Part shown: piece after piece, positions 18,779-35,951 of the stretch
Layout of the letters: each line of letters opens with the position of its first letter
Position numbering within the stretch: position 1 is the first letter of the stretch
NCBI GenBank assembly: GCA_051252135.1
Contig: JBPOGH010000001.1
Coordinates: forward strand, 32,001 to 96,000
Length of the DNA: 64,000 bases
Direction of reading: 5' to 3'
From: Verrucomicrobiaceae bacterium
Lineage (GTDB): Bacteria; Verrucomicrobiota; Verrucomicrobiia; Verrucomicrobiales; Akkermansiaceae
Position numbers and translations under genes: made by a program
Notes under the pieces: generated by a model
Told to the model about the DNA's origin: nothing
The model's database searches: none
Seen by the model: the letters and a program-made list of their open reading frames with translations, nothing else

Positions 18779-18919
18779 CTATCGATCAGAGGGGCCTAGC
18801 AGCGTCTCCGAAGCATCGCCGAAGGGATCGGTGACGAAGGTGAAGTCAGCGTCGCCATTTCCGAAGGTGCGGGTGGCCTCGTCGTCGAGATTGCCGGTGG
18901 ATTCGAAGTCGAAGATCAT
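18779..18919 (-). pseudogene. 46-codon ORF resembling a duplicated sulfatase C-terminal module (possible frameshifted tail)
   Basis: MIFDFESTGNLDDEATRTFGNGDADFTF... overlaps the upstream stop (ATGA) and echoes AGNGGADFTF in the upstream protein. Confidence 0.4.
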
Positions 18920-21765
18920 TGTGCCGGGGCGGAGGTTTCGACGCGGAAGTCATCGAAGATGGAGCTGCCGGAGGACCAGGTGGTGAGGCCGAAGCGGCTG
19001 TTGAGGGGGATGTTGGTGCCGAGATCGAAGGCGAGGTTCTCGTAGTAGAGGACGCCGGCGGGAGTGAAGATGCGGAGGTCAACGAGGGAGGAGCCTTGAG
19101 TGCCGGAGATCTGGAGGGTGTAGAGGTCTCCGTTGGCGGAGTAGTCGGCGAGGGAGTTTTCGGCGATGAGGGTGGAGGAGGCGGAACCTTGGGTGACGCG
19201 GACGAGGCGGACGTCCTTTCCGGTGCCGCCGGGGGTGCTGCGGCCATCGGCGAGCATGAACTGCCAGAAGGAAGAGCTGCCACCATCAGGAACGATGCCG
19301 AAGGCGAGACCGGAGGCGACGCCGTTTCCATTGAAGCCGGTTTTTACGGAGGCGGTGAAGGAGGTTTCCGAATCGAGAGAGATGAGATCGTAGGAGCCGA
19401 GAGTGAGTGGGCCAGCGGGGGCGGAGGCCTGATCGCTGGCGAAGGTGAAGTCAGCTCCGCCATTTCCGGCGATGGCGAGAGTCCAGTCGGGGTCGGCGTT
19501 GAGGGCGCGGGATTTGCCATCGAAGGAATCGGTGGGGGTGCCGGTGGGTGGGGAGACAGGGGAGTGGTATTGCTGGGTGCGGCGGGAAAGTTCCGAGGGG
19601 TCGGAGTTGTAATCCTCGGTGAGGGTGCGCCATTCGCTGAGTTCGTGGCGGAGGTTGGCGATGATGGGGGCGAGAGAGGGATCGTTGATGAGATTGTTGG
19701 TGCACCAGAGGTCGGCATCGAGATCGAAGAGCTCTTCATCGGGGAGGGGGTCGCCGCTGGAGTTTTTTCCGGTGACGGATTGGAGAAGGAGTTCGCGGCC
19801 GAGGGTTCCCGTGGCGGCGAGGGTGGCATCGTAGGTGCGGTTGAACCAGGGAGAGCCGCCCTGATATTGGTCGGTATTGAGGGCGAGGGCGGGGTTGGCA
19901 AGGGTGCCGGAGGGTTTGGAGATGTTACGAACGTAGTAGTAGCGGCCATCGGTGACGGCTCGGGCATCGTAGTAGCGATGGCAGGCGGTGAGCATGGTAT
20001 CGCGATCCGGGATGTCATTTTGAGTGCCTTCGAAGATGGGGCGAAGGGATTTGCCGAGGTGGCCCGGGAGCCGGGGCATTCCGATGTAGTCGGTGAGCGT
20101 TGGGGCGATGTCGAGATGGCTGACGGGTTCGGTGATGCGGCGGTTTCCGCTGACTCCGGGGCCTGCGACGAGTAGTGGAATCTGGAGTCCGGTGGAGTAG
20201 ATCGACTGCTTGGCGCGGTGGAGGCCAATGCCATGATCGGAAGTGAAAATGATGAGTGTTTCGCCATCGATGCCGCGATTTGCGAGGGTGTCGACGCAGG
20301 CCTGGACGATGCCGTCGATGACCTTAATGGAACCGAGGTAGTCGGCGATATCCTGACGAACACCGGGGACGTCGGGGTAGCAGTTCGGGACGTCGATGGC
20401 GTTGGCGTCGATATTGGTGACTCCGCCATCGCCGGTGAGGCCTCCCGATGGATCCCAGACGCCGTTGGCATTGGGAACGGCTTTGAAGGGGAGGTGGGGA
20501 GAGCCGACATTTGCCCAGAAGAAGAAGGGGCGGTTGCCGGCCCGGGTGATGACATCGTTCATCGCGGTGGTGGCAGCGGCGGGTGTTCCCAGGTTGGGGT
20601 GTCCTTCGTGGTAGGGGAATTTGCGGACGGGCTGGACGTGCGACTTGGAGGAGACCGCGGTGTACCAACCGCGATCGCGGAGGACCTCGATGAGAGTGGG
20701 AAGATCCTCATGGACGCCACCGAGGGTGGTGTTGGAGGGGTCAGAACCGGAGGGGAGCGGGAAGTCGACTCCGTAGTTGAAGACATTCCGGTGGGCGCTG
20801 TTGGTGTGGGGGAAGGTGCCGGTGTAGAGGGCCATCTTGGATGGCGAGCAAACGGGGGAGAGGCAGAAGGCGCGATCGAAGACGACGCCTCCGGTGCCGA
20901 GGGCATCGATGTGCGGGGTGTCGAGCCCGCGGGTGGTGTTGTCCTCCGGGTTGGGGCTGTCACCGGTGAAGCCTCCGACGGGGTTGGAGTCGTAGAGGCC
21001 GAGGTGGAGGCTTTGGTCCTCGGTGATGAAGAAGAGGATGTTTTTTACGGGGATGACGGGTGAGGTGCCGAGAGAGAATTCCTGTCCGTCGGTGACGGTG
21101 TCGCCATCGAAATCGGTGGTGCGAGAAATGTGGGTCAGGTTGGTGAAGGCGTCGGTATCGCTGTGATTGAGGCACCATTGTTCGAAGTGGTCGGGGATGG
21201 TGTCGCCATCCGAATCGACCGAGGTGAGTGGGTCGGTGCCCTGGAGGAACTCGATGTCGTCGGCGACCTTATCTCCGTCGGTATCCCACTTGAGAGGGTC
21301 GGTTCCGAGGAGGGCTTCCTCTTTGTTGGTGAGTGAGTCGGTGTCGGAATTGAGGGCTTCGTGACGGATGCGTCGGACGAAGTTTTTTCCGGCATCAAAA
21401 GGGATGGTGACGGTGGTGTCCGAGCCATCAGAAAGGACGGGGGCGGACTGGCGGGTCCAGTTGAGGAGGTCCGGAGACGTCTGGGTGAGGTCACGCATCC
21501 AAGGCTCACCGGGGAAGGTGATGTCAGTGGAGTTGGTTTGGCGGTCGACGTTGGCTTTGAATGAAGAGTTGGCGTCGTTGGGATCGGTGAAGGCGCGTCC
21601 TTCGTCGTGGTTCAGGCAGCCGTCGGCATCGAAGTCATCGAATGGCGCGGCGGCTGCCGAAGGGTGGAGGGATTCCCAAACATCGCTGATGCCGTTGTTG
21701 TTCTGATCGAGGGCGGAGGCCGGTGCGATGATAAGGACCGCGAGGGATGGAAAGAGGCGGGACAT
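18916..21765 (-). CDS. Modular secreted sulfatase: Asp-rich DxDGD (TSP3-like) repeats + S1 domain + C-terminal beta-sandwich
   Basis: Signal peptide, GTDP..DTDGD repeats, KNILFFITEDQ, variant motif CSPSK, SDHG, EELFDL..D. Confidence 0.85.
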   Translation of the reverse strand: MSRLFPSLAVLIIAPASALDQNNNGISDVWESLHPSAAAAPFDDFDADGCLNHDEGRAFTDPNDANSSFKANVDRQTNSTDITFPGEPWMRDLTQTSPDLLNWTRQSAPVLSDGSDTTVTIPFDAGKNFVRRIRHEALNSDTDSLTNKEEALLGTDPLKWDTDGDKVADDIEFLQGTDPLTSVDSDGDTIPDHFEQWCLNHSDTDAFTNLTHISRTTDFDGDTVTDGQEFSLGTSPVIPVKNILFFITEDQSLHLGLYDSNPVGGFTGDSPNPEDNTTRGLDTPHIDALGTGGVVFDRAFCLSPVCSPSKMALYTGTFPHTNSAHRNVFNYGVDFPLPSGSDPSNTTLGGVHEDLPTLIEVLRDRGWYTAVSSKSHVQPVRKFPYHEGHPNLGTPAAATTAMNDVITRAGNRPFFFWANVGSPHLPFKAVPNANGVWDPSGGLTGDGGVTNIDANAIDVPNCYPDVPGVRQDIADYLGSIKVIDGIVQACVDTLANRGIDGETLIIFTSDHGIGLHRAKQSIYSTGLQIPLLVAGPGVSGNRRITEPVSHLDIAPTLTDYIGMPRLPGHLGKSLRPIFEGTQNDIPDRDTMLTACHRYYDARAVTDGRYYYVRNISKPSGTLANPALALNTDQYQGGSPWFNRTYDATLAATGTLGRELLLQSVTGKNSSGDPLPDEELFDLDADLWCTNNLINDPSLAPIIANLRHELSEWRTLTEDYNSDPSELSRRTQQYHSPVSPPTGTPTDSFDGKSRALNADPDWTLAIAGNGGADFTFASDQASAPAGPLTLGSYDLISLDSETSFTASVKTGFNGNGVASGLAFGIVPDGGSSSFWQFMLADGRSTPGGTGKDVRLVRVTQGSASSTLIAENSLADYSANGDLYTLQISGTQGSSLVDLRIFTPAGVLYYENLAFDLGTNIPLNSRFGLTTWSSGSSIFDDFRVETSAPAQ

Positions 21766-21774
21766 GAGGAGGGG

Positions 21775-24561
21775 CTAGTTTTTCACGGTAAAGGCATGGC
21801 TCCCCGAAGTGAGTTGGTGGGTCTGGTTTTCGGGGGTCTTGTTGGTGAAGGGAGACTTGGTTGGGAGGATGAGGGTGGCGGTGGTGTTGGGAGGGATGGT
21901 GGCCTCGTAGAGGAGGGAGCCGTCGTCCTGTTTTTTCCAATGAATGGAGATGCGCCCCTGGGGTGAGTCGTGATGAGCTTTGACCCAGGAAATGGTGTTG
22001 GGGTCGGCTTTGTAAGCATCCGGGCTGGGGAAGTGCGGGTGGAGTTTGATGGTGGAGTAGCCGGGGGAGTCGGGCTCGATCCCGGCGAGGGTGGACATCA
22101 TCCATCCGGTGACGGCACCGAAGGCGTAGTGGGAGAAGGAGTTCATGGCGGCGTTCAGTGTGCCGTCGGCTCCGCCGAAGCCGTATTCCTCGGTGTAGGA
22201 ATTCCAGCGTTCCCAGATGGTGGTGGCTCCGTTCTTTACCTCGTATCCCCATGATGGGTAGAGGCGAGACTGGATGAGTTTCATTGCGGCGTCGTGTTGA
22301 CCGGTGGCGGTGAGCATGGGGAGGAGAGGCTTGGTGCCGAGGAAGCCGGTGGTCATGCCGGTGTTTTTTTCATTAGCTCCTTTGGCGAGGAGTCCGGCTA
22401 GGATGGAGCCTGTTTTCTTGCGCTCGGCAGGGTCGGTGAGGATTCCGCAATCGAGAGCAAGGACGTAGGAGGTCTGGGAGGTGAGCTTGAGGGTGCCGTC
22501 ATTGTTCAGGTAGGTCTTGCGGAAGTTTTGGCGAAGGGTGTTGGCCCAATCGCGGTAGTGGTCGGCTTCGGTATTGAGTCCCTGGGCGGCCGCCATTTCC
22601 GCCATTTGTTCCGAGATGAGGGTGAAGTAGCAGAGGTCGATGTATTCGTGCGGGGTGGGGTCGTCGAGATTGAGCCAGTCGCCCCAAGGTGCTCCGAACG
22701 CGGTGCCTTGGAGCTTGGGGTCATTCTTGTGGCGGGCGTTCATGAAGCGGGTCATGGCGGGCCAGTGCTTGGTGAAGAAGTCGGTGTCGCCGGTGGCCTT
22801 CCAAATGGCATGGGGGACGATGACTCCGGCATCGGACCAGGCGGTGGCGTGGATGGCACCGCCGTGTCCGAAGGGATAGGGGGCGTAGGAGGGGTAGTAG
22901 CCCTCGGGGGTCATGGAGTCTTCGAGTTCGCGGAGCCATTTCTTGAAGAAGGCGGCGACATCGGCGTGGTAGGCGGCGGTGGCGGCGTAGATTTGAGCGT
23001 CGCCGGTCCAGCCCATGCGCTCGTCACGCTGCGGGCAATCGGTGGGGAGGTCGATCCAGTTGCCGCGTTGGGTCCAGACGGCGTTGAGGAAGATTTTGTT
23101 CACGACGGGATCGGATGATTCAAAGCCGGAGGCGAGGGGAGTGTCCGAGTGGAGAACGAGTCCGGTGATCATGGAGAGATCGGGTTTTTCGGAGATTCCT
23201 CGTACTTCGACGAACTGGAATCCGTGGAAGGTGAAGCGAGGGGTCCATGTTTCGCCGTTGGGGTCACCTTTGAGAATGTAGGTGTCGGTTGAACGGGCAG
23301 CACGGAGGTTCTCGGTCATGAGGCGTCCGTCGGGGTGGAGCATTTCGCCGAAGCGGAGAGTGATTTTCTGTCCGGCTTCGCCTTTGACCTTCAGACGGAT
23401 GTTGCCGGCGATGTTTTGGCCGAGGTCGAAGATGTAGACGCCGGGGGCGTGCTCGGTGACGGACTTGGCGGAGAGTTCCTCGATGATACGGACAGGTTGG
23501 GCGGGGTAGGCTTCGAGGACGGGAGGTTTGACGAAGCCGAACTCGCGTTCTTCCTTCACGAAGCGGTCGATGAAGATGGCTTTGGTGGAGCCGTTGTCCT
23601 TGGCCAGAATGGCGGGCTCCCAAGCGGAGTCATCGTATCCGGGAGTGGACCAGCCGGCGAGTTCCTTGCGGGCATCGTAGGCTTCGCCCATGAGGAAATC
23701 GGCTTCGAACTCGGGGCCGGTGGTGACTTTCCAAGTGGGGTTGGTGCTGATCTTATCAGTCGTGCCATCTTCGAAGGTGAAATGGATTTCCACCATGAGG
23801 GCGGGGGTTTTACCGTAGGTGTTTCGTCCGGTTTTGTGGGGGCCATAGCCGACGAATTTTCCGTAGGCGATGTATCCGGCATACCAGCCGTCTGCGACGA
23901 TGGCTCCGAGGGCATTTTTTCCTTCCTTGAGTTGGTCGGTGATATCGTAGGTGTTGTAGTAGGCGCGCTTTGCGTAGTTGGTCCAGCCGGGGGCAAAGTA
24001 GGTGTCGCCGACTTTCTTGCCATTAAGCTCGAGCTCGTAGATGCCGAGAGCGGAGGCGTAGGCGACGGCGCGCTTAATTTTTTTACGATTTTTGAAGGTG
24101 GTGCGGTAGTAGCGGGCGGAGGGGAGGTAGAGCTCGTTGCGGTTGTCGTGGAGTTTCGAGGTGTCCTTGAAGGAGATCCAATGGGCGGTAGGCTTGGCGT
24201 TGATGAAGGAGGTGGTGAAGGTCTGGGTCGCGGACCACTCGGAGGGCTGGTCGTTTTGGTCCCAAGTGCGGGCCTTCCAGGAAATGAGAGAGTTGGAAGG
24301 GACGGAGTCGCCAGGGTAGACGACGAAACTTTTGTTAGAGGCGACTTTTTCCGAATCCCAGAAAATGGAGTCATCGGCGTAGGCGATGATTTGGTAAGCG
24401 GATTGTGAGGCTCCTTGCTCATCGGTAGCCATGGCCCAGGAGAAGCGGGGCTGGGCGTCGTCGAGGCCGACGGGGTTGACGCGGTGTTCAACCTGGAGAT
24501 TGGTGACTTGGTGTGCGTGGAGGGAGGACGCGAGGATGGCGGAGAGGAACAGGGATTTCAT
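21775..24561 (-). CDS. Alpha-L-rhamnosidase, GH78
   Basis: PTDCPQRDERMGWTGDAQ, GATTIWERWN, MNSFSHYAFGAV, DLGQN, PRFTFHGFQFVE; start ATG 24561 gives a signal peptide. Confidence 0.95.
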   Translation of the reverse strand: MKSLFLSAILASSLHAHQVTNLQVEHRVNPVGLDDAQPRFSWAMATDEQGASQSAYQIIAYADDSIFWDSEKVASNKSFVVYPGDSVPSNSLISWKARTWDQNDQPSEWSATQTFTTSFINAKPTAHWISFKDTSKLHDNRNELYLPSARYYRTTFKNRKKIKRAVAYASALGIYELELNGKKVGDTYFAPGWTNYAKRAYYNTYDITDQLKEGKNALGAIVADGWYAGYIAYGKFVGYGPHKTGRNTYGKTPALMVEIHFTFEDGTTDKISTNPTWKVTTGPEFEADFLMGEAYDARKELAGWSTPGYDDSAWEPAILAKDNGSTKAIFIDRFVKEEREFGFVKPPVLEAYPAQPVRIIEELSAKSVTEHAPGVYIFDLGQNIAGNIRLKVKGEAGQKITLRFGEMLHPDGRLMTENLRAARSTDTYILKGDPNGETWTPRFTFHGFQFVEVRGISEKPDLSMITGLVLHSDTPLASGFESSDPVVNKIFLNAVWTQRGNWIDLPTDCPQRDERMGWTGDAQIYAATAAYHADVAAFFKKWLRELEDSMTPEGYYPSYAPYPFGHGGAIHATAWSDAGVIVPHAIWKATGDTDFFTKHWPAMTRFMNARHKNDPKLQGTAFGAPWGDWLNLDDPTPHEYIDLCYFTLISEQMAEMAAAQGLNTEADHYRDWANTLRQNFRKTYLNNDGTLKLTSQTSYVLALDCGILTDPAERKKTGSILAGLLAKGANEKNTGMTTGFLGTKPLLPMLTATGQHDAAMKLIQSRLYPSWGYEVKNGATTIWERWNSYTEEYGFGGADGTLNAAMNSFSHYAFGAVTGWMMSTLAGIEPDSPGYSTIKLHPHFPSPDAYKADPNTISWVKAHHDSPQGRISIHWKKQDDGSLLYEATIPPNTTATLILPTKSPFTNKTPENQTHQLTSGSHAFTVKN

Positions 24562-24591
24562 AGGAAACGATGAAAGTAGGTGGGGATAAGG

Positions 24592-24616
24592 AAGCACACC
24601 CAAGATGGGTGTGCTT
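24592..24616. other. Perfect intergenic hairpin
   Basis: AAGCACACCC-aagat-GGGTGTGCTT between the small membrane gene and GH78; no clear U-tract, so role unclear. Confidence 0.5.
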
Positions 24617-24634
24617 GAGAAAGACCGGGATGGA

Positions 24635-24835
24635 TTAAATTTGGTCTTGGGTGGAGGTATCGAGTTCCTCCTTTTGGAAGGCGAGCCACGGGGTGGCTGC
24701 GACATACCAAACGACCATTCCAATCGCCATCATGGTGAAGGTTGATTTCTCCGAGAGGTCGGAGAGGAGATGGAGGAGTGGCGGGATGATGGTGAGTGCG
24801 AGACCCAGAAGAGCGATAATCGGTAAGAATTTCAT
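24635..24835 (-). CDS. Small two-TM membrane protein
   Basis: 66 aa, two hydrophobic helices, 18 bp downstream of the permease. Confidence 0.75.
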   Translation of the reverse strand: MKFLPIIALLGLALTIIPPLLHLLSDLSEKSTFTMMAIGMVVWYVAATPWLAFQKEELDTSTQDQI

Positions 24836-24853: not shown

Positions 24854-26230
24854 TTAGGCGCTTTTCTTAAGCAGGGTTTTACTGAAGACGATATGGAGGA
24901 TGGCGGTGGCGATCCAGCAGGGAAGGATGCAGAACCATGAGCTGACTCCGACAATCTTGATGAGATAGGTCGCAAAGGCAACCGGGATGAGCCAAGCGAG
25001 GAGGACTGCGGGATTGAGACCGATGCCGCTTTTTTCAGCGGCGAACTGGGTGAATCCGGCGCGCCGGGCGAAATACCAATCGGCGAAGATGACAGCACCC
25101 ATGGGAGCGAGGACGGTTCCGTAGAAGCCGACAAAATCGAGGAGTTTGAAGGCGAATGCGGGGAAGAGACCGGCGATGGTTGCGACCGTTCCTGCGACGA
25201 GCGTCATCGTGGTGCGGGATGATCCGGGGATCATGGCCTGGAAGGCGAGACCGGCGCGGTAGATGGTGGGGTTGGCGGTGGTCCAGCCGGCGACAACGAC
25301 ACAGACGATGCCGGCGAGGCCGGCGACATTGGCGGCCATGATGCCGGGGTTTGGGCTGGTGTCTCCGCTCATTTTGATCTGAGCGGCGAGCATGAAGGCG
25401 GCGGAAATCCAGGCCATGTAGTGACCGACGAACATGCCGCCTGCTGCGGCCCAACCGGCGTTGGCATTTTTGGCGTAGCGGAAAACGGAGAGGTCAGCCA
25501 TTCCGATGTGCATGGCGGAGTTACAGAACCAGGCGAAGAGGGCGACCGACCAGAAGCCCATGGGCTCGGTTGCGTTGCTGTCCTGGGCAATGTTGATGGA
25601 TTGGGTCCAGACGGCGTTGAGTCCTTCCCAGTTGTCGGCACCGATTTGCTTGAGGGCGACGAATCCGCAGGCGAGGAAGACGAGGACCATCCAGGGGGAG
25701 GCGACGTTTGCGAAGCGGGCGACCATGTCGTATCCGCGCGCGGCGACGAGGGCGATGACGGCTCCGACGGCAAGGACGATGATGATGAAAGCGGCGCTGT
25801 TCGGGTAGACGGCTTCGAAGGCAGGCATTTCGATGTTGAAGGGGATGCCGACCGCGGTTGCCGAGACGGTGATCATGGCTCCGGCGAGGAAGCAGAAGAG
25901 GATGCCGTTCGCGAGGTTGTAGAATTTGACCAGTTTGTTTCCGGCGATTTTTTCGAGGTGGAAGTAAAGGGTCATGCGGGCCTTGGTCGCAATGGGGGCG
26001 CAGACGAAGCGCCAACTGAAGACGGCGAGAAGGTTGCCCAAGAGGAGACCGAGGAAGATATTTTGAAGGGTGACGCCATTGAGAAGGAAGAGCGGACCGA
26101 TCATGAACTCGGTCCCCGCGGCGTGTTCGCCGGAATACATGCCCCAAAATTTACCCGGACCTTTACGGGCGTTTTCCGGCACCGGGGTGCGTTCGTACTC
26201 GTTGTTTGCGTGGTTTTCTTCGTCAGCCAT
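24854..26230 (-). CDS. Purine-cytosine permease (NCS1/CodB-like) family transporter
   Basis: EYERTPVP N-terminus, many TM segments, AGWTTANPTIY motif. Confidence 0.85.
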   Translation of the reverse strand: MADEENHANNEYERTPVPENARKGPGKFWGMYSGEHAAGTEFMIGPLFLLNGVTLQNIFLGLLLGNLLAVFSWRFVCAPIATKARMTLYFHLEKIAGNKLVKFYNLANGILFCFLAGAMITVSATAVGIPFNIEMPAFEAVYPNSAAFIIIVLAVGAVIALVAARGYDMVARFANVASPWMVLVFLACGFVALKQIGADNWEGLNAVWTQSINIAQDSNATEPMGFWSVALFAWFCNSAMHIGMADLSVFRYAKNANAGWAAAGGMFVGHYMAWISAAFMLAAQIKMSGDTSPNPGIMAANVAGLAGIVCVVVAGWTTANPTIYRAGLAFQAMIPGSSRTTMTLVAGTVATIAGLFPAFAFKLLDFVGFYGTVLAPMGAVIFADWYFARRAGFTQFAAEKSGIGLNPAVLLAWLIPVAFATYLIKIVGVSSWFCILPCWIATAILHIVFSKTLLKKSA

Positions 26231-26266
26231 AGTGTGTGTGGGAATAACCTTTCCCGAAGTTGGGGA

Positions 26267-26294
26267 ACAATAGGAATTGATGCAGGTGCGTCAA
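26267..26294 (-). promoter_or_regulatory. Putative sigma70 promoter of the permease operon
   Basis: Minus strand TTGACG-N16-TATTGT. Confidence 0.5.
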
Positions 26295-26302
26295 CCTCAA
26301 AC

Positions 26303-26316
26303 AAGAAACGCTTCTT
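26303..26316. promoter_or_regulatory. Candidate LacI-family operator AAGAAACGCTTCTT
   Basis: One mismatch to the 18704 palindrome; in the divergent permease/lacI intergenic region. Confidence 0.75.
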
Positions 26317-26372
26317 CCGAAAGAAGTTAATCCAGTTGCAGAATAGGGTGTGGTTGTCTAACACTTCCCGAG

Positions 26373-27398
26373 ATGGCAGTCGGTAAAGTCAGACTCAAGG
26401 ATGTCGCAGAAAAAGCGGGAGTTGCGGTGAATACAGCATCGACGATATTGAATCGTCGACCCAACTCATGGGCTTCGAAAGAAACCGAGGAGCGGGTGTT
26501 TGCGGCGGCCAAGGAGTTGGGTTACCGGCCCAACCGTGCAGCAGTGGCATTACAGGCCGGATGTTTTAAGACGATTGGTCTTTTGATCGCGGATTTGGAG
26601 AATCCTTATTACACGCATTTCTCGGAAGTGTTTGGTAATCAGATTGAGAGTCGTGGTTATGATCTGTTGATCGAGAACTGGCGGACGGACTTGCAGCGTG
26701 AGAAGAAGCTTTTGGAGGATTTTGTGCATCGCAATGTCGATGGGGTGGTTGCGTTTGTGAGTGATATTGAGGAACACCGGGAATTTTTGGAGAGTCAGAC
26801 GAAAGCGGGATTTCCGATTGTGGCGCTGGCGATGCCCGGTCCGGATGAGATGGGGCTTGATATGGTGACGCCGAATTTCGGTCCCGGGCTGCGTGAGGCG
26901 GCTTCGATTCTTCACGGGTTGGGCCATCGTAAATTTGCCTTTTTGGCGGCCAAGTCCGGTGGTCAGCGGGTAGGGAAACGGCCGGCTCTTTTCCGGGAGT
27001 TGATTGATGAGTATGGCGACTCGGAATTGGAGGTTGTGGATTCCGGTCCGACTCTCAAGGAGGCCCGTGATCTGGGCCATGCATTGTTGAGCAAAGAGAA
27101 CCGGCCGACCGCGATTGTCGGTCTCAATGATCTTGCGGCGATTGGGGTGATGCGTGCGGCCAAGGATTTGGGATTGAAGGTTCCCGAGGATGTTTCGGTG
27201 GTTGGGATTGATGGAATTCCGCTGGCGGAGCAGTTGGTGGTGTCTCTTTCGACTATTGCCCAGCCTCATGAAGAGATGGTGGCGAAGGCGATTGAGTTCC
27301 TGATGGCGCGGATTGACAGTGATGAGGTATTGGCCCCCCAGAGGGCTGATTTTCCGACGCGATTCATCAAGCGGGAGTCGGTTGGGCCTCCACGTTGA
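26373..27398 (+). CDS. LacI family transcriptional regulator
   Basis: LKDVAEKAGVAVNTASTILN HTH, LGYRPN hinge, PTAIVGLNDLAAIG, VPEDVSVVGID. Confidence 0.95.
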   Translation: MAVGKVRLKDVAEKAGVAVNTASTILNRRPNSWASKETEERVFAAAKELGYRPNRAAVALQAGCFKTIGLLIADLENPYYTHFSEVFGNQIESRGYDLLIENWRTDLQREKKLLEDFVHRNVDGVVAFVSDIEEHREFLESQTKAGFPIVALAMPGPDEMGLDMVTPNFGPGLREAASILHGLGHRKFAFLAAKSGGQRVGKRPALFRELIDEYGDSELEVVDSGPTLKEARDLGHALLSKENRPTAIVGLNDLAAIGVMRAAKDLGLKVPEDVSVVGIDGIPLAEQLVVSLSTIAQPHEEMVAKAIEFLMARIDSDEVLAPQRADFPTRFIKRESVGPPR

Positions 27399-27403
27399 TT
27401 TTC

Positions 27404-27430
27404 TCCCGCAGTGGAGCGGGGACCTTTTTG
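27404..27430 (+). terminator. Possible intrinsic terminator after the LacI gene
   Basis: CCCGC-agtgga-GCGGG hairpin followed shortly by TTTTT. Confidence 0.45.
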
Positions 27431-27458
27431 TGTTAGGGGGGAGATTCAGTCCTTTTGA

Positions 27459-27773
27459 TCACTCCTGATGAAATACCATTTTGAGGGAAGTGGTGACCGG
27501 GGAGTTGTCGGGATGGGTTTCCATGAGGTCGGCCATGTGGCGCCACCATTTTTTGACGGTGGGGGAGTTGGGGAGTTGATCAGCGGTGTGGTGGTCACTG
27601 AGGCATTGGACGGCGAAGAGAGTGAGGGTTTCGGGGTCGAGGAAGATTGAGTAATCGGAGATTCCGGCTTGGGTGAGTTCAGCTGCGAGTTCCGGCCAGA
27701 TCCGGTTGTGGCGACGGTGATATTCTTCTTCGTGGCCTGGCTTGAGTTGCATTTTGAAGGCGACCTTTTGCAT
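27459..27773 (-). CDS. rhaM: L-rhamnose mutarotase
   Basis: AFKMQLKPG..EEY..RH..IWPEL, AGISDYSIFLD, KWW.HMADLMETHPDNSP; start ATG 27773. Confidence 0.95.
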   Translation of the reverse strand: MQKVAFKMQLKPGHEEEYHRRHNRIWPELAAELTQAGISDYSIFLDPETLTLFAVQCLSDHHTADQLPNSPTVKKWWRHMADLMETHPDNSPVTTSLKMVFHQE

Positions 27774-27804
27774 GGTGGGGACGATTATGCACACTTTGCG
27801 TCAC

Positions 27805-27826
27805 AAGAAACGTTTTAAGTTTGACA
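27805..27826. promoter_or_regulatory. Candidate LacI-family operator AAGAAACGTTTTAA plus adjacent TTGACA
   Basis: Two mismatches to the palindrome; in the divergent rhaM/isomerase region, 2 bp from TTGACA (27821-27826). Confidence 0.65.
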
Positions 27827-27914
27827 GTTGGGTGTGTGTCCTCTTTTTTTCCTGCAGCAGGGATCGAGAAAGAGAATGCTCGATTTGCCACCCATCCTAA
27901 CTGACTTTTGACAT

Positions 27915-29117
27915 ATGTCCGACGATTTTCATCAGCGCATTTCCCGAGCCCTTGATCATTTTGAAATCGAGTTGCCGTCGTGGGGTTTCGCTGATACCGG
28001 CACTCGTTTTGGGAAATTTATGCAGGATGGGGCTGCGATTGATCTGGGAGACAAGCTGTCGGATGCGGGTGAGGTGAACAAGTTGACCGGGTGCTGTCCG
28101 CAGGTGGCGACGCATGCGTTGTGGGATTTTCAAGAAGGGCAGGATTCGGCGGAAATTGTGGAATTGGCCAAGAGTCATGGAGTGCGTTTGGGATCGATGA
28201 ACCCCAATCTTTTTCAAGATCAACAGTATAAGCTGGGAAGTCTTTGCAACGCTGATGCGGAGATTCGGAAGCAGGCATCGGATCATGTGATCGACTCGAT
28301 CAAGAGGGGGCAGGAAGTGGGCAGTCGTGCGGTCTCGCTCTGGTTGGCGGACGGGACGAACTATCCGGGACAAGACTCGATCCGTGATCGCAAGAGACGC
28401 CTCGAGAATGCGTTGGGTGAGTTCCACAAGCATCTTGCGGAGGATCAATTGTTCCTGGTGGAGTATAAGCCCTTCGAGCCGGCCTTTTACCATACTGACA
28501 TTGCGGATTGGGGGATGTCCTACATTTACGCGAAGAAGATGGGGCCACAGGCGAAGGTGTTGGTTGATACGGGCCATCATTATCAGGCGCAGAATATCGA
28601 GCAGATTGTGGCCTGGCTTCTGGATGAGGACATGCTGGGAGGGTTCCACTTCAACGACCGGCGTTATGCGGACGATGATTTGACTCTGGGCTCGATTGAT
28701 CCGTATCAGATTTTTCGGATTTTCAGCGAGATTCATGGCTTTGCGGCATCACAAGGCGGCAAGTATCCCTCGGTGGAGTATATGGTGGATCAGTCGCACA
28801 ACCTGAAGCCCAAGATGGAAGCGATGATCGAGACGGTGACGGCGGCGCAGGAGCTTTATGTCAAGGCGTCGCTGGTGGATCACGATCAACTTTCGCGTCA
28901 TCAGGAGCGGGGTGAGATCGTGGATGCCGAACGTATTCTCAAGAAGGCCTTTGGGACGGATGTCACCGGAGCGATTGGCGAGTGGCGTCGCGGACGAGGA
29001 CTTGCGGAGGACCCGTTGACGGCCTTCCGCGAGAGCGGATACCTCGACGATATTTCCAGGGAGCGAGCATCCCGCCGCAAGGAGCTCGGGATCGTTTCCG
29101 GGGGCGGATATGCCTGA
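27915..29117 (+). CDS. rhaI: L-rhamnose isomerase (RhaI type)
   Basis: IELPSWGFADTGTRF, WLADGTNYPGQ, EYKPFEPAFYHTDIADWG, DTGHH, GGFHFND..YADDDL, DQSHN. Confidence 0.92.
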   Translation: MSDDFHQRISRALDHFEIELPSWGFADTGTRFGKFMQDGAAIDLGDKLSDAGEVNKLTGCCPQVATHALWDFQEGQDSAEIVELAKSHGVRLGSMNPNLFQDQQYKLGSLCNADAEIRKQASDHVIDSIKRGQEVGSRAVSLWLADGTNYPGQDSIRDRKRRLENALGEFHKHLAEDQLFLVEYKPFEPAFYHTDIADWGMSYIYAKKMGPQAKVLVDTGHHYQAQNIEQIVAWLLDEDMLGGFHFNDRRYADDDLTLGSIDPYQIFRIFSEIHGFAASQGGKYPSVEYMVDQSHNLKPKMEAMIETVTAAQELYVKASLVDHDQLSRHQERGEIVDAERILKKAFGTDVTGAIGEWRRGRGLAEDPLTAFRESGYLDDISRERASRRKELGIVSGGGYA

Positions 29118-29156
29118 TTCGAATTTTTCAATTACCAATTTCAACACACCTTTTTT

Positions 29157-31349
29157 ATGTCCTTTTCACCAACTGAATACAGACACGTCAACTATGGCTG
29201 GGATGATGCCCAGGTAGCAGGGATGAGCGCCGTTGAGCGTCTTGCCTATCGTTCCAATATCCTGGGTGCCGATCAGCGCATCACGAACACCGGAGGAGGA
29301 AACACCTCTTCCAAAGCGAATGAAACCGATCCTCTCAGCGGGGAAGAAGTTGAGATTCTTTGGGTGAAGGGATCGGGTGGAGATCTTCGGACGTCCACGG
29401 TAGAGAACTTTTCGTCCCTCTATCAGGACAAGCTGATTGCCTTGCAGAAGATTTACAACGAGACGACTCCGAATGGAGTGAAGACACAGATCGAAGACGA
29501 CATGGTGGGGATGTATCGTCACACGACCTTCAATCTGAATCCACGGGCTTCATCGATTGATACGCCGTTGCACTCCTTCATTCCTTACAAGCATGTCGAC
29601 CACATGCACCCGAACTCCTTCATCGCTCTGTGCGCGACGAAGAACTCGGAAGCGATCACGAAGGAGATTTTTGGTGACGAGATTGTCTACACTTCCTGGC
29701 AGCGTCCGGGATTTGATTTGGGACTTCTTTTCCAGAAAGTCTGTGAGGAGAATCCCAATGCCAAGGGAATCAACATGGGGCAGCACGGGCTGATTAACTG
29801 GGCGAACGACGACAAGGAGTGTTACGAGCTGACACTTGAGTTGATCGAGCGTGCAGGCCGCTACATCGAAGAGCGTGACAAGGGGGCGGACACCTTTGAA
29901 GGTCAGAAGTTCGGCAAGCTGGGCGAAGAGCAGCAGAAGGAACTTGTGAGCGAGATTGTCCCGTGGCTTCGCGGTCAGGTGAGTCAGCAGAATCGCTTTG
30001 TGGCGACGATCGAAACGACCGATGCGGTTCTTGAATTTGTGAACAGCAACGCGGCTCCACGTCTTGCCGAGCTGGGGACGTCCTGCCCGGATCACTTCCT
30101 GCGGACGAAGATCAAGCCGCTTTATGTTGATTGGAATCCTGAGACCGAGGGGCTTGATGTTCTGCGGACGAAGCTGACGGCCGGTCTTGAGAAGTATCGT
30201 GCGGATTACGCAAGTTACTACGAGGCGAACAAGGAGACGCATTCGCCAGCGATGCGCGATCCGAATCCGACGGTGGTGTTGATCCCGGGTATCGGGATGG
30301 TGGCTTTTGGTAAGAACAAGAGTGAGTCACGGGTGACGGCTGAGTTTTACAACTGTGCGATCTCGGTGATGCGTGGTGCGGAAGCGATCGACGAATACAT
30401 CGGCCTTCCCCAGAAAGAGGCTTTTGATATCGAATACTGGGCTCTTGAAGAAGCCAAGTTGCAGCGGATGCCACCTGAGCGCGAGTTTGCGCGTAAAGTG
30501 GTGATCGTGGTGGGCGCCGGAAGTGGAATCGGCAAGGAAATGGCAAATCTTATGATTGATCAGGGGGCGCACGTGGTGTGTGCCGATCTGAATCAGGAGA
30601 GCGCACAAGCAACTGCTGACGAGCTGATCGCGAAAGTGGGTCAGGGAATCGGAGTGGCTGGCACGGGGATTTCGGGTTGTGGAAACGCAATTGGCTTGGC
30701 TTGTAACGTGACCGACCGTGAGTCGATCAAGGCGATGCTTGCGGAGGTTGTTTATGCTTACGGTGGTTTCGACCACATCGCGGTGACGGCGGGAATCTTT
30801 GTTCCACCCGATCGCACGGGTCACATCCCTGACGACAAGTGGGGGCTGACTTTTGGAATCAACGTGGCCGGGCCGTATTTTGTGGCTGATGAGGCTGCCA
30901 AGATTTGGAACGAGCAGGGACTCCGAGGTTCGATGGTTGTGACGACCAGTGCGAATGCGGTGGTCTCCAAGAAGGGAAGTGTTGCCTACGACACCTCGAA
31001 GGCGGCGGCGAACCATTTGCTGCGTGAGCTTGCGATAGAGCTTTCTCCGCTTGTTCGGGTGAACGGAGTGGCGCCCGCTACCGTGGTGGCCGGAAGTGCG
31101 ATGTTCCCCCGTGATCGGGTGATCGCTTCGCTGACGAAATATGACATCGCGTTTAGCGATGATGAGGAAACGGAAGATCTTCGCGACAAGCTTGCGCAGT
31201 TTTACGCGGACCGGACCTTGACGAAGGCACCGATCACCCCGCGTGATCAGGCCAACGGAATTCTGTTTATGTTGAGCGAAGCCTCATCGAAAACGACCGG
31301 ACAGATTCTGGCAGTTGACGGCGGTCTCCATGAAGCGTTCCTTCGTTAG
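29157..31349 (+). CDS. Bifunctional rhamnulose-1-phosphate aldolase / short-chain (lactaldehyde) dehydrogenase, RhaEW type
   Basis: GGGNTSSK, VKGSGGDL, SIDTPLH..HVDHMHP, CPDHFLRTK; SDR domain GAGSGIG, YDTSK. Confidence 0.93.
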   Translation: MSFSPTEYRHVNYGWDDAQVAGMSAVERLAYRSNILGADQRITNTGGGNTSSKANETDPLSGEEVEILWVKGSGGDLRTSTVENFSSLYQDKLIALQKIYNETTPNGVKTQIEDDMVGMYRHTTFNLNPRASSIDTPLHSFIPYKHVDHMHPNSFIALCATKNSEAITKEIFGDEIVYTSWQRPGFDLGLLFQKVCEENPNAKGINMGQHGLINWANDDKECYELTLELIERAGRYIEERDKGADTFEGQKFGKLGEEQQKELVSEIVPWLRGQVSQQNRFVATIETTDAVLEFVNSNAAPRLAELGTSCPDHFLRTKIKPLYVDWNPETEGLDVLRTKLTAGLEKYRADYASYYEANKETHSPAMRDPNPTVVLIPGIGMVAFGKNKSESRVTAEFYNCAISVMRGAEAIDEYIGLPQKEAFDIEYWALEEAKLQRMPPEREFARKVVIVVGAGSGIGKEMANLMIDQGAHVVCADLNQESAQATADELIAKVGQGIGVAGTGISGCGNAIGLACNVTDRESIKAMLAEVVYAYGGFDHIAVTAGIFVPPDRTGHIPDDKWGLTFGINVAGPYFVADEAAKIWNEQGLRGSMVVTTSANAVVSKKGSVAYDTSKAAANHLLRELAIELSPLVRVNGVAPATVVAGSAMFPRDRVIASLTKYDIAFSDDEETEDLRDKLAQFYADRTLTKAPITPRDQANGILFMLSEASSKTTGQILAVDGGLHEAFLR

Positions 31350-31361
31350 TATTCACCAACG

Positions 31362-32846
31362 ATGAAAACCGACGTTCTCCTTATTGGTTCCGGAATCATG
31401 TCCTCGACTCTCGGGGTCATGCTCAAGGAGCTGCAGCCGGGCCTCTCGATTCAATTGATCGAAGTGACCGACAAGCCTGCGCAGGAGGCGTCGAATGGCT
31501 GGAACAACGCGGGCACCGGGCATGCCGGAATCTGCGAGCTTTCCTACACTCCTCATCAGGAGGCGGATGGGAGTGTCAATGTTTCCAAGGCGATCTCGGT
31601 GTTTGAGGATTTTGAGCATTCGCTTCAGTTCTGGGCGCATGCCGCACGCAAAGGGATTATCAAGGATACGAGGGAGTGCGTGAATCCGCTTCCGCACATC
31701 TCACTTGTTCACACCGAAGAGCAGTTGCCTTACCTGAAGGCGCGCTTCGAGGGGTTGAAGGGGCATCATTTCTTTGAGCCCATGAAGCACTCGACGGACC
31801 GGGATGAGATCAAGTCCTGGGCTCCGCTTTTGGTGGAGGGGCGTGATCCCGATCAGCCGATTGCGGCGACCTTCATGGACGGAGGGACTGATGTGAACTT
31901 CGGCGAGATTTCCCGAAATTTCTGTGAGTGGCTGGATCAGCAAGAGGGCTGTGAGGCTCACTTCGGTCATCGGGTTGTTGATCTCAACAAGAAGGGCAAG
32001 GGCTGGTTGGTGACCGTTCGTGAAGAAGCGACCGGTGAGAAACGCCAGATTGAAGCCGGCTTTGTCTTTATTGGAGCCGGTGGTGGGTCACTTCCGTTGC
32101 TCCAGAAATCGGGTATTCCGGAAGTGAAAGGCTATGGCGGTTTCCCGATTGGTGGCCAGTGGATGATTACGAGGAATCCGGAAGTGGTGGCAAAGCACAC
32201 CGCCAAGGTTTACGGGCAGGCTTTGGGAGCGGCGCCGACGATGGCAGTTCCTCATCTGGATACCCGGGTGATCGATGGCGAGCGTTACCTTTTGTTTGGG
32301 CCGTTCGCAGCGTGGACGGGGAAGTTCCTTCACAATGGGGGGAGTCATACCGATTTGCCGTTTTCGGTTCGGCCCAGCAATATTTTGTCGTTGATGCGGG
32401 TGGGTTTCCACAATGTGGATCTGGTGAAATATCTCGTGCAGCAGGGCATCCAGTCGAAGGCGTCGCGGATGGAGGAGCTTTACAATTTCTATCCGGACGC
32501 GAAGGAAGAGGATTGGGAGGTGATTGATGCGGGAATCCGGGTGCAGGCGATCAAGCAAGAGCCCGGAGAGGAGCCGGGAATCGTGCACTACGGCACGGAG
32601 GTCCTTACGAGCGCGGACAAGAGTATTTCGGCCCTTTTGGGGGCATCACCGGGAGCTTCGGTGTCGACCCAGGTGATGTTGGAGTGCATCCAGCGTTGCC
32701 TTCCAGACTTGCTGGAGTCTGACGAGGCGAAGGCGCGCATGAGTGAGATGATTCCCAATTGGGATGAGGACCTCAAAGAGGCTTCGGCAAGAGATCGCTA
32801 TCTTGATATTCACGGGAAGGCGATGGCCGACCTCAATCTTCTTTAG
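31362..32846 (+). CDS. mqo: Malate:quinone oxidoreductase family flavoprotein (substrate possibly L-lactate)
   Basis: IGSGIMS, SNGWNNAGTGHAGICELSYTP, GTDVNFG, FIGAGGGSLPLLQKSGIPE, PTMAVPHLDTR, LLGASPGAS. Confidence 0.88.
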   Translation: MKTDVLLIGSGIMSSTLGVMLKELQPGLSIQLIEVTDKPAQEASNGWNNAGTGHAGICELSYTPHQEADGSVNVSKAISVFEDFEHSLQFWAHAARKGIIKDTRECVNPLPHISLVHTEEQLPYLKARFEGLKGHHFFEPMKHSTDRDEIKSWAPLLVEGRDPDQPIAATFMDGGTDVNFGEISRNFCEWLDQQEGCEAHFGHRVVDLNKKGKGWLVTVREEATGEKRQIEAGFVFIGAGGGSLPLLQKSGIPEVKGYGGFPIGGQWMITRNPEVVAKHTAKVYGQALGAAPTMAVPHLDTRVIDGERYLLFGPFAAWTGKFLHNGGSHTDLPFSVRPSNILSLMRVGFHNVDLVKYLVQQGIQSKASRMEELYNFYPDAKEEDWEVIDAGIRVQAIKQEPGEEPGIVHYGTEVLTSADKSISALLGASPGASVSTQVMLECIQRCLPDLLESDEAKARMSEMIPNWDEDLKEASARDRYLDIHGKAMADLNLL

Positions 32847-32849
32847 AGC

Positions 32850-34337
32850 ATGCCTGATTCCAAGTCTGTCTATCTCGCTGTTGATCTGGGTGCCGGCAGT
32901 GGTCGGGTTATTGCCGGGGTGTTGCAAGGCGATAAGCTCAGCCTTGAGGAGATCAACCGTTTTGAGAACAAACCTTTTGAAAAGAATGGCGGGCTCTATT
33001 GGGATTTTGAGAGCTTGTGGGAGGGGATTATTGAGGGGCTGAAAAGGTCGGTGGAGACGTATTCCGCGGAGATGATCCGGTCAATCGGGGTGGATACCTG
33101 GGGGGTGGATTACGGCTTGCTCGACAAGGACGGGCAGCTTTTGGGAGGCCCCCGGCATTATCGGGATGAGCGGACGAGTGGGGCGATGGAGAAGGTGTTT
33201 TCGCAAGTGAGTGAGGCAGAGGTTTTTGAAGAGACGGGGCTTCAATTCATGGAGATCAACACCCTTTTCCAATTGGCGGTGGAGGCGAAGGACGGGGAAA
33301 GCCGGTTGAAAGACGCGGAGCAATTTTTACTGATACCGGACCTGATCAACCATCGCCTGACCGGTAAGGCGTATTGCGAGCGGACGAACGCGAGCACGAC
33401 GCAGTTCTACAATCCGGTCGAGAAGGATTGGTCGAAGAAGCTCTTTGGCGCGGTCGAGGTGCCGCTGGAAGTGACTCCGGAGCTCATCGCAGCCGGCGAG
33501 AGTCTGGGCGGAGTGCTTCCCGGGATTCGGGAGGCGACCGGAATTGGCGAAGCGACGGAGGTGGTGACGGTGGGAAGCCACGATACGGCTTCGGCGGTGG
33601 CGGCGGTGCCTGCGGACGCGGGAACGCGGTTTGCTTATTTGAGTTCGGGGACGTGGTCGCTGCTGGGTGTTGAGCTGGACAAGCCGGTGATGACGCCGTT
33701 GGTGCACGAATACAATTTCACGAACGAGGTGGGTGTTTTTGACACGATTCGTCTGCTGAAGAATATCAACGGATTGTGGCTGGTGCAGGAATGCCGGCGA
33801 ATCTGGAATGAGCAGGGGCGGGATTTGAGCTACGCGGATTTGGCAGGGATGTCGCGTGAAGTGGAGCCGTTGACTTCATTTGTGGATCCTGACAGCGAGC
33901 GCTTTGGGCGACGGGCGAACATGCCGCAGATGATTCGTGATTTTTGCCGGGAGACCGGTCAGCACGTGCCGGATGGTCCGGCTGAGATTGTGCGGCTGAT
34001 TGCGGACAGCTTGGCGATGAAGGTGCGATTTACGCTGGGTCGGCTTGAAGAGCTGATCGGGCATCAGGTGGAGATTCTCCACATCATTGGAGGAGGGGGG
34101 CAGGACGAGATGCTCAACCAAAGCATCGCCAACAGCATCAATCGCCCGGTGGTGGTGGGGCCTTACGAGGCGACGGCGGCGGGGAATCTGATGATGCAAA
34201 TGGTGGCGTGCGGGGAGCTTTCGACCTTCGAGGAGGGACGGGCGATGATCCGGGATTCCTTTGAGACGAAACGGTTTGAGCCCGAAGCTCCTGAGAAGTG
34301 GGATGAGGCCTATGAGCGGTTCAAGGGGCTGCTCTGA
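32850..34337 (+). CDS. rhaB: Rhamnulokinase
   Basis: LAVDLGAGSGR, SIGVDTWGVDYGLLD, HDTASAV, SSGTWSLLGVE, FTNEVG, EATAAGN. Confidence 0.93.
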   Translation: MPDSKSVYLAVDLGAGSGRVIAGVLQGDKLSLEEINRFENKPFEKNGGLYWDFESLWEGIIEGLKRSVETYSAEMIRSIGVDTWGVDYGLLDKDGQLLGGPRHYRDERTSGAMEKVFSQVSEAEVFEETGLQFMEINTLFQLAVEAKDGESRLKDAEQFLLIPDLINHRLTGKAYCERTNASTTQFYNPVEKDWSKKLFGAVEVPLEVTPELIAAGESLGGVLPGIREATGIGEATEVVTVGSHDTASAVAAVPADAGTRFAYLSSGTWSLLGVELDKPVMTPLVHEYNFTNEVGVFDTIRLLKNINGLWLVQECRRIWNEQGRDLSYADLAGMSREVEPLTSFVDPDSERFGRRANMPQMIRDFCRETGQHVPDGPAEIVRLIADSLAMKVRFTLGRLEELIGHQVEILHIIGGGGQDEMLNQSIANSINRPVVVGPYEATAAGNLMMQMVACGELSTFEEGRAMIRDSFETKRFEPEAPEKWDEAYERFKGLL

Positions 34338-34376
34338 TGGGGTGGGGCTGTGAGGGGTGACTGTTTGCTTCGCAAC

Positions 34377-35951
34377 CTAGCCCGGAAGCATCATGCTGCG
34401 GATGGCGTAGAACAGGAGAGCGGCCATGATTCCCGAAGCGGGGACCGTGATGACCCAGGCGGCAGCGATTTTGAGCAGTGCTGAACGCTTCACCAATTCC
34501 TGCCGGTAGACCTTCTTAAGTCCTTTGCGTTCGCGCTTGGTGAATTCCACCTTGGTGGTGTGCTCTTTGACTTGGGCGAGCATCTGACGTTTGTCTTTGA
34601 TCGATCCGTTTTTGAATTTTGTCATAAACGCTTCCACTTCGGCATGATTTTTTCCGGAGTGATGTTGTTCAATTTCATCAATGGTCTTTGCGTAGCTGGC
34701 CTTGAGAAACTCCCGTAGGAATCCGACTCCAAAGACTCCGCCCACGGCGATATGGGTTGAGCTTACCGGCAAGCCGAGTTGGGAGGCGATGATGACGGTG
34801 ATTGCGGCTGCCATTGCGATGCAAAACGCTCTCATCTGGTCGAGTTCGGTGATCTCACTTCCGACGGTGCGGATCAACTTCGGACCAAAGAGGGCCAGCC
34901 CGAGGACAATTCCCAATGCACCGATGGCCATGACCCAGAAGGGGATGGGAGCTTTGGAGGCGACCCCGTGGCTGGTGATAGTGTCGGCGATTGCGGCAAG
35001 CGGACCGACGGCGTTGGCGACATCATTGGCCCCATGGGCAAAACTCAATAAGGCGGCGGCAAATATCAGGGGCAGGGTGAAGAGGCGGTTGATGCTCTTT
35101 TTTTCGTTGTCCATTGAGGCCGAGTGTTTTCGGGTCAGTGACTTCGCCATGAAATAGGTGAACACGGCTAGGGTCAGTCCAATTCCGGAGGCCGTAAGAA
35201 TGTCCACTTTGACGATTTGCTTGAGCCCCTTCATGATCAGGTAGGTGCTGAAGGCGAGAACCATGATAGCGACGAGGATGGGCAAGATCCGTTGAGCCGC
35301 GGTGATCATGTCTTCCTTGTAGGTGATGCTGTGCTTGATCCAGTAGAGGAAGGCGGCGGCGATGATACCTCCGATGACCGGAGAAATGACCCAACTGGCA
35401 GCGATGAGCTTCATCTGATCCCAATTGGCGATTCCAAATCCTCCCGCAGCGATGCCTGCGCCGAGAACGCCTCCGACGATGGCATGGGTGGTGGAAACCG
35501 GGGCTCCGAGGGCGGTGGCGATATTCAGCCAAAGCGCCCCGGCCAGCAGGGCTGCCATCATGAGCCAGATGAAGACATCGGCATTTGGAATGAGGGACGG
35601 ATCGATGATTCCTTTTTTGATGGTGCTGACGACACCTCCTCCGGCAATGAGTGCTCCCGCTGCTTCGAAGATGGCGGCAATAATGATCGCTCCGGTCAGG
35701 CTTAGGGCTTTGGAGCCGACGGCGGGACCGACGTTGTTGGCGACATCATTGGCCCCGATATTCATGGCCATGTAGCCACCGATCATGGCGGCGATTACCA
35801 GTTCGATGCTGACCGGTTGACCATCCGGGCGAATGCTCGAAGAGAATAACATGATACCGACGATGAAAAGTAGGGCGGAGCCGATGCGGAACATTTCCTT
35901 GCGCCCGAATGCGGTGGCTTTTTCCAATTTTTGAATATTTTCGATCTCCAT
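34377..35951 (-). CDS. Inorganic phosphate transporter, PiT family
   Basis: Duplicated GANDVAN signature and PVSTTH/PVSSTH motifs. Confidence 0.95.
   Translation of the reverse strand: MEIENIQKLEKATAFGRKEMFRIGSALLFIVGIMLFSSSIRPDGQPVSIELVIAAMIGGYMAMNIGANDVANNVGPAVGSKALSLTGAIIIAAIFEAAGALIAGGGVVSTIKKGIIDPSLIPNADVFIWLMMAALLAGALWLNIATALGAPVSTTHAIVGGVLGAGIAAGGFGIANWDQMKLIAASWVISPVIGGIIAAAFLYWIKHSITYKEDMITAAQRILPILVAIMVLAFSTYLIMKGLKQIVKVDILTASGIGLTLAVFTYFMAKSLTRKHSASMDNEKKSINRLFTLPLIFAAALLSFAHGANDVANAVGPLAAIADTITSHGVASKAPIPFWVMAIGALGIVLGLALFGPKLIRTVGSEITELDQMRAFCIAMAAAITVIIASQLGLPVSSTHIAVGGVFGVGFLREFLKASYAKTIDEIEQHHSGKNHAEVEAFMTKFKNGSIKDKRQMLAQVKEHTTKVEFTKRERKGLKKVYRQELVKRSALLKIAAAWVITVPASGIMAALLFYAIRSMMLPG

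Follow-up and report, generated by a model that had tools for sequence, protein, structure and literature searches.

Half of each fucose or rhamnose carbon skeleton exits as L-lactaldehyde and then as L-lactate. The enzymes treated here belong to the malate:quinone oxidoreductase (Mqo) family, a group of drug targets represented by one structure, at low resolution; Spahich in 2016 reportedly modelled Lqo and Mqo. In passages of PMC3417369, Lqo of Staphylococcus aureus is described as oxidising L-lactate and not malate. Passages of PMC3870299 present L-lactaldehyde as common to rhamnose and fucose catabolism, report that RhaEW orthologues form L-lactate and DHAP in vitro and place lldD/lldEFG within RhaEW regulons; 'mqo' has 0 occurrences in the main text of that paper. 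LutABC has been described together with rhamnulokinase in a Chthoniobacteraceae genome (excerpt of PMC11596606). Excerpts of PMC8857213 identify Verrucomicrobiota and Planctomycetota as main degraders of algal polysaccharides rich in fucose and rhamnose and assign the lactate step to a dehydrogenase of the bacterial microcompartment (BMC) locus; for several Puniceicoccaceae MAGs they record a TIGR01320 protein under the name malate dehydrogenase (quinone). The sections of PMC11874196, PMC11958385 and PMC13608581 at hand hold nothing on a link between mqo and deoxy-sugars, and searches that paired mqo with either sugar or with lactaldehyde, and that reached few subscription journals, retrieved no title or abstract start describing the clade discussed below.

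We analysed a window of 64,000 nucleotides from genome G000, an assembly that is 96.6% complete. The GC skew of the window (1-64000) is strongly positive throughout (0.15-0.49 per 2 kb) and dips lowest across the rha operon (28-32 kb and 34-36 kb). The relevant features are:

18916..21765, - strand: sulfatase, 949 aa, N-terminal part repetitive; next gene downstream after the GH78 rhamnosidase
21775..24723, - strand: GH78 alpha-L-rhamnosidase (profiles); true start probably near 24561
24854..26230, - strand: cytosine-permease-like (NCS1-like) transporter, likely for rhamnose (NF008241, E 8e-14)
26373..27398, + strand: LacI-family regulator, likely RhaR (profiles; adjoins rhaA in several same-genus loci)
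~27459..27794, - strand: L-rhamnose mutarotase RhaM (TIGR02625, 102 > 99.6; PF05336)
27915..29117, + strand: L-rhamnose isomerase of the RhaI type, rhaA (TIGR02635, 487 bits, below the cut-off of 531)
29157..31349, + strand: RhaEW, rhamnulose-1-P aldolase / L-lactaldehyde dehydrogenase, 730 aa (TIGR02632, 981.8 > 567.75; NF006189, 1071.8 > 634)
31362..32846, + strand: clade-X Mqo-family flavoprotein, 494 aa, ATG start (PF06039, TIGR01320, tree, residues, model)
32850..34337, + strand: RhaB-like rhamnulokinase (best model TIGR02627, 460 bits, below the cut-off of 528; FGGY_N/C)

RhaEW, isomerase, kinase and mutarotase occur within one locus, as is characteristic of a RhaEW-type pathway. The gene order is rhaA-rhaEW-mqo-rhaB, and the ORF coordinates and profiles confirm what had been read from the sequence alone, namely that mqo sits between a rhaEW-type gene and rhaB at distances of 12 bp and 3 bp, respectively. 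The GC and GC3 contents of mqo (0.56/0.68) are in line with those of the neighbouring genes. We infer co-transcription of mqo with the rha genes; a promoter/terminator scan of 26000-34600 returned counts at shuffle level (3 vs 3.3; 11 vs 9.4). The transporter has no Pfam match and recurs, at 50-85% identity, in Akkermansiaceae and Rubripirellula rha loci, and we regard it as a candidate for an unrecognised rhamnose transporter. The position of the sulfatase beside the GH78 rhamnosidase suggests sulfated rhamnan as a substrate.

The mqo product belongs to the Mqo family: it matches PF06039 over its full length (E 6e-195, residues 2-476) and has a DAAO-type FAD fold, its AlphaFold model (pLDDT 84.6) superposing on the mycobacterial Mqo 9dm1_A with a TM score of 0.93 and an rmsd of 2.1, with L2HGDH as the next match (E about 1e-20). 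The score with the Mqo model TIGR01320 (615 bits, cut-off 550) is not discriminating, because staphylococcal Lqo also passes (625), while the score with the staphylococcal Lqo model NF040844 (498 bits) is far below the cut-off of 915 (control Lqo 1020). The closest relatives, at 90-92% identity, are found in Akkermansiaceae MAGs. The genome contains one Mqo only, which is the rha-linked copy, and one NAD-dependent malate dehydrogenase (NAD-MDH) gene, unlinked to the rha operon. The lack of a lut or lld gene noted earlier for the window extends to the whole genome as assembled: the searches recovered no LUD domain and no full-length FMN_dh (two short partial matches, none at E<=1e-40), and likewise no lactate permease (PF02652) and no BMC domain. 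Three unlinked genes might act on lactate, each scoring below its NCBIfam cut-off: one of the Ldh_2 family, one for a D-2-hydroxyacid dehydrogenase and one for a flavoprotein resembling GlcD.

Mqo matches were recovered from 56/151 genomes of the family, at 61-100% identity in 24 and at ~39-52% in 44, with both in 12. The 113 proteins of our tree are the window protein, those of 39 loci of the family and of named GTDB loci, Mqo of E. coli, two Lqo from staphylococci and three further Mqo of the plasmid collection; 8 duplicates, one locus interrupted by a stop and partial matches of <400 aa were omitted. The tree represents a quick search with SH-aLRT support, without bootstrap and with no outgroup. 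In this tree 63/113 rows form what we call clade X (SH-aLRT 100, stem 0.6), the named rows of which are all Verrucomicrobiota or Planctomycetota. The rha-linked copies, for which the sequence-only reading had envisaged a common clade, all fall here. Staphylococcal Lqo branches with the Mqo of Bacillota, and an AU test with 33 of the 113 rows rejected a topology that unites Lqo and clade X (p 0.003); on the tree, clade X is shown to have arisen independently of staphylococcal Lqo. The parallel that had been drawn with S. aureus Lqo is supported as to the predicted function; clade X is of separate origin and not orthologous to that enzyme. In several coagulase-negative staphylococci lqo and an L-lactate permease gene are plasmid-borne (L081, L082; 33 Staphylococcus plasmid records matched). 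In the closed genome G370 a clade-X-like gene (G370:C1:3048844-3050325) gave separate matches for residues 3-211 and residues 211-472, which suggests a frameshift.

Linkage to deoxy-sugar genes is a property of clade X. A rhaEW, rhaB, rhaA, rhaM, fucI or aldolase gene was found within 6 kb in 49/62 clade-X loci (window excluded) vs 0/48 other Mqo loci, 33 of which had >=5 kb on both sides. The linked loci comprise 8/9 from Planctomycetota, 28/31 from named Verrucomicrobiota and 13/22 under family handles; for the remaining 13/62 no rha/fuc gene lies within that distance, and no RhaB match was found in the clade-X genomes G061 and G084. A second sample, of 301 genomes of the phylum, contained 39 genomes with an Mqo match and 26 intact copies with the clade signature (see below); a RhaB-like kinase lies within 1.5 kb of 22/26 of these and was found for two more in wider flanking sequence, but not in G358 and G430. 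The five distant RhaB-like kinases that were tested score best as rhamnulokinase, all below the cut-off. The possibility that an ordinary mqo landed in one operon by chance, with no functional link, is what automatic annotation alone would favour; the linkage is not chance, because it recurs in the clade loci and in none of the other Mqo loci, and its conservation in two phyla and in many gene orders refutes this possibility, to which we attach next to no probability. The sequence-only reading had made its case depend on such conservation in other genomes.

The genetic contexts of clade X are diverse: rhaEW-X-rhaB, rhaEW/deoR-rhaB-X and rhaB-fucI-X (FucI-type loci L053, L118, L121, L124, L135 and L189), and, in Rubripirellula (L112), aldehyde dehydrogenase-rhaB-double aldolase-clade X. 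In L216, clade X stands at the end of a locus for a PV microcompartment, which also encodes PduL, BMC-H, acetate kinase, EutN shell proteins, an acylating aldehyde dehydrogenase and an aldolase. In L132, a Phycisphaerae contig, the order is rhaM-SDR-FAA hydrolase-amidohydrolase-clade X, a cluster that we take to resemble a non-phosphorylative route ending in pyruvate and L-lactate. L-lactate is the product common to the RhaEW, FucI, PV microcompartment and non-phosphorylative-type contexts. The proposal of a variant of rhamnose catabolism is supported, but the predicted role is not confined to rhamnose. In four Rubripirellula/Rhodopirellula rha loci (L109:37-1326, L111, L112 and L115) the gene immediately before clade X encodes a class II aldolase of 430 aa that is doubled in tandem, with two Aldolase_II stretches.

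We then compared active-site residues, mapped from PfMQO (H123/E128, Y330, H343/D345, R446) by motif and, for R393, by motif alignment. H54, E59, Y284, H298, D300 and R393 are kept in the window protein, and the same set was found in all 36 loci checked. According to passages of PMC11097338, PfMQO requires H123, Y330 and H343, and R446 is proposed to bind the C4 carboxylate of malate. Loss of this distal Arg was considered as a lactate signature and rejected, as the Arg is present in clade X and in Lqo alike; R393 does not discriminate, because both staphylococcal Lqo rows retain the Arg too. Other positions do separate the groups. The canonical Mqo rows, the malate specificity of most of which is by annotation, have N61, P293, S295, Q392 and L408 in 48/48 each, and in the clade-X rows these are replaced by S (63/63), T (62/63), A (62/63), I (63/63) and V (63/63), respectively. 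With H409 (62/63) this gives the clade-X signature S61, T293, A295, I392, V408, H409; the two staphylococcal Lqo rows have T295, K392 and I408. Position 392 adjoins R393. Position 295 is three before H298 and is therefore, by this offset, likely the equivalent of L299 of DmL2HGDH, in the distal pocket: in that enzyme L299, three residues before H302, binds the distal carboxylate by its backbone together with R393 (passages of PMC10726252). The residue pattern fits what would be a reshaped distal pocket. A further Mqo homologue (L234, G424:C72:24515-25927; 51% identical) carries a third signature, N61, A293, G295, I392, L408, S409, and perhaps represents another specificity shift; its genome, G424, also has LutABC.

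Clade X alternates with known lactate dehydrogenases at the same position. The slot after deoR-rhaB holds clade X in six loci (L215-217, L220-222), lut genes in four (lutA-lutB-lutC domains verified in L218; lutB/lutC in L219, L223 and L224) and an LldD-type gene in L196 and L197, and such a gene also follows rhaB in L198. G058, of the same genus as the window, has the operon of the window without mqo, and an LldD-type gene elsewhere in the genome. The 43 RhaEW genomes, in a table that was compiled by hand and in which kin are included so that the counts are not independent, divide into 16 with clade X only, 26 with LUD or long LldD-type only, one with both (G030) and 0 with neither; the 'long LldD-type' class in these counts was delimited post hoc, on the length of the match, with 3 partially matching genomes left unclassified, and the member tested scores below the LldD cut-offs. 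With canonical Mqo as control the same 43 genomes gave 6 with Mqo only, 20 with Lut/LldD-type only, 7 with both and 10 with neither (Fisher p 0.50), although outside genus g1 the control is also associated (p 0.008). In all 151 family genomes, Lut or long LldD-type genes occur in 1/24 clade-X genomes vs 96/127 others. LUD (52 genomes) and long LldD-type (45) are never together in one genome, as expected of interchangeable enzymes. On the RhaEW tree clade X changes state 7 times, and 5 independent pairs gave 4.4 in the predicted way and 0 opposite, an underpowered comparison (sign test, p 0.125). In the phylum sample, LUD was found in 2/27 clade-X genomes, both with a non-rha-linked copy, vs 5/10 canonical-only genomes, a count that leaves out G424 (third Mqo type). 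Exclusion with LUD alone was rejected as too weak a proof, because in the family sample LUD seldom accompanies canonical Mqo either (2/44 genomes). The mutual exclusion foreseen between rha-linked mqo and lutABC thus proved almost complete, and it covers LldD-type genes as well, but it has the exceptions given (1/24 in the family and, for LUD, 2/27 in the phylum). A short FMN 2-hydroxy-acid dehydrogenase type (L075:1489-2601, G045 and relatives), which adjoins an ApbE-family gene in L075, is present in 19/151 genomes; it co-occurs with clade X in 6/24 genomes and, as it is found with both clade X and LutABC, probably has another substrate.

A different role would be that of a true malate:quinone oxidoreductase in deoxy-sugar operons, which together with NAD-MDH would run a malate/oxaloacetate loop that moves the NADH of lactaldehyde oxidation to quinones. 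In a search for NAD-MDH that covered 80 genomes, a match was obtained in G000 and in 49/50 other clade-X genomes (G080 missed), one match among the 50 being partial and two having a stop inside. In favour of the loop, Puniceicoccaceae-type deoxy-sugar loci end in a dehydrogenase (L216:16045-17037, with counterparts in L215 and L217-L224) that lies 5-10 kb from clade X, where this is present, and keeps the MDH motif PRKxGMER; the one scanned among the loci compared here passes the MDH cut-offs, and it is the only MDH found in several small genomes. That this microcompartment-locus dehydrogenase is an MDH-derived lactate dehydrogenase, which would leave small genomes without MDH, was rejected, 14/14 copies keeping PRKxGMER. 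The TIGR01320 score, the retention of all six Mqo catalytic and binding residues and the status of the gene as sole Mqo in G000 would also agree with a malate loop. The loop is weakened, however, because the same MDH stands equally beside the lut genes of L218, L219, L223 and L224; in G000 the MDH is unlinked, four Mqo-invariant residues are changed in clade X, and canonical Mqo is also carried by 12/24 clade-X genomes of the family sample. It would leave unexplained both the exclusion with Lut/LldD-type genes and the 16 RhaEW genomes without either, and we hold it to be quite improbable.

A broader L-2-hydroxy-monocarboxylate:quinone oxidoreductase, acting on L-lactate and also on glycolate, L-glycerate or 2-hydroxybutyrate arising where these aldolases process other sugars, or alternatively an enzyme of both lactate and malate, could account for the retained R393, for the 13/62 unlinked loci and for L142, a long-branch member from Pirellula with FAA hydrolase, D-2-hydroxyacid dehydrogenase and GntR regulator genes as neighbours and no rha genes. 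The partners that are swapped in the same slot are, however, LutABC and LldD-type genes, and S. aureus Mqo and Lqo, tested side by side, are each single-substrate, so that we consider this broader activity unlikely.

Oxidation of L-lactate remains the reading that we prefer. Clade X occupies the place of known lactate dehydrogenases in two phyla and therefore likely oxidises L-lactate, not malate; we are confident, short of certainty, in predicting a FAD-dependent L-lactate:quinone oxidoreductase that finishes deoxy-sugar catabolism. The conversion of lactate to pyruvate that the sequence-only reading had proposed as completing the pathway is, as a prediction, supported by clade, linkage, near-exclusion and shared slot. 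In the locus of the window, GH78 would release rhamnose, RhaM, RhaI and RhaB would convert it to rhamnulose-1-P, and RhaEW would yield DHAP and L-lactate, as shown for orthologues (PMC3870299). The clade-X enzyme, presumably membrane-associated and with quinone as acceptor, would then oxidise L-lactate to pyruvate, with the electrons entering the quinone pool. Homology with PfMQO and DmL2HGDH suggests that H54, with E59 as its partner, would take the C2-hydroxyl proton while the hydride goes to FAD N5, and that Y284 and H298 would hold the C1 carboxylate. In the weakest step of this scheme, the loss of invariant polar Mqo residues (N61S, P293T, S295A, Q392I) may adapt the distal pocket to a methyl in place of a carboxymethyl group. 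Malate oxidation would be covered by NAD-MDH, the gene of which is present here and was matched in nearly all other clade-X genomes searched.

Clade-X proteins are named malate dehydrogenase (quinone) in databases, and the mqo of the window is probably misannotated: it would be an Lqo by function, not by descent. More broadly, it seems probable that clade X is a second, independent L-lactate:quinone oxidoreductase derived from Mqo, which has spread through the two phyla and which databases list under the TCA cycle. As a third interchangeable module, besides LutABC and LldD, it would bring the lactate half of rhamnose and fucose back into central metabolism in marine methyl-pentose specialists, also at the exit of the PV microcompartment, where the 'lactate dehydrogenase' of the locus looks like a malate dehydrogenase; the six-residue signature would identify the clade and point to a malate-to-lactate switch. 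If this is true, the lactate-to-pyruvate gap is filled in genomes without a recognised lactate dehydrogenase (16/43 RhaEW genomes), the annotation of clade-X proteins is to be corrected, and a second natural malate-to-lactate switch stands beside that of staphylococcal Lqo, with specificity residues that become directly testable.

Compared with the known systems, the predicted reaction is that of staphylococcal Lqo (S. aureus SACOL2623), an Mqo-family paralogue with 44% identity to the window protein. The catalytic His/Tyr/Arg are kept in both, and positions 295 and 392 are off the Mqo consensus in both, as T/K in Lqo vs A/I in clade X; Lqo adjoins an L-lactate permease gene, whereas clade X sits in deoxy-sugar operons. 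Canonical Mqo (E. coli b2210, M. smegmatis 9DM1) has the same fold and 46-50% identity to the window protein, but is never found beside rha/fuc genes (0/48 loci), clade X being a separate long-stemmed clade. L-2-hydroxyglutarate dehydrogenase (DmL2HGDH, 8W78), the next-closest fold, has the same H/Y/H/R active-site set at ~16% identity, and is reported in passages of PMC10726252 to be inactive on L-lactate and L-malate. LutABC/LldEFG, an Fe-S complex, and LldD, an FMN barrel, serve the same pathway step in rhamnose regulons (excerpts of PMC3870299 and PMC11596606) and share the slot after rhaB with clade X; they are non-homologous to it, and their distribution is complementary.
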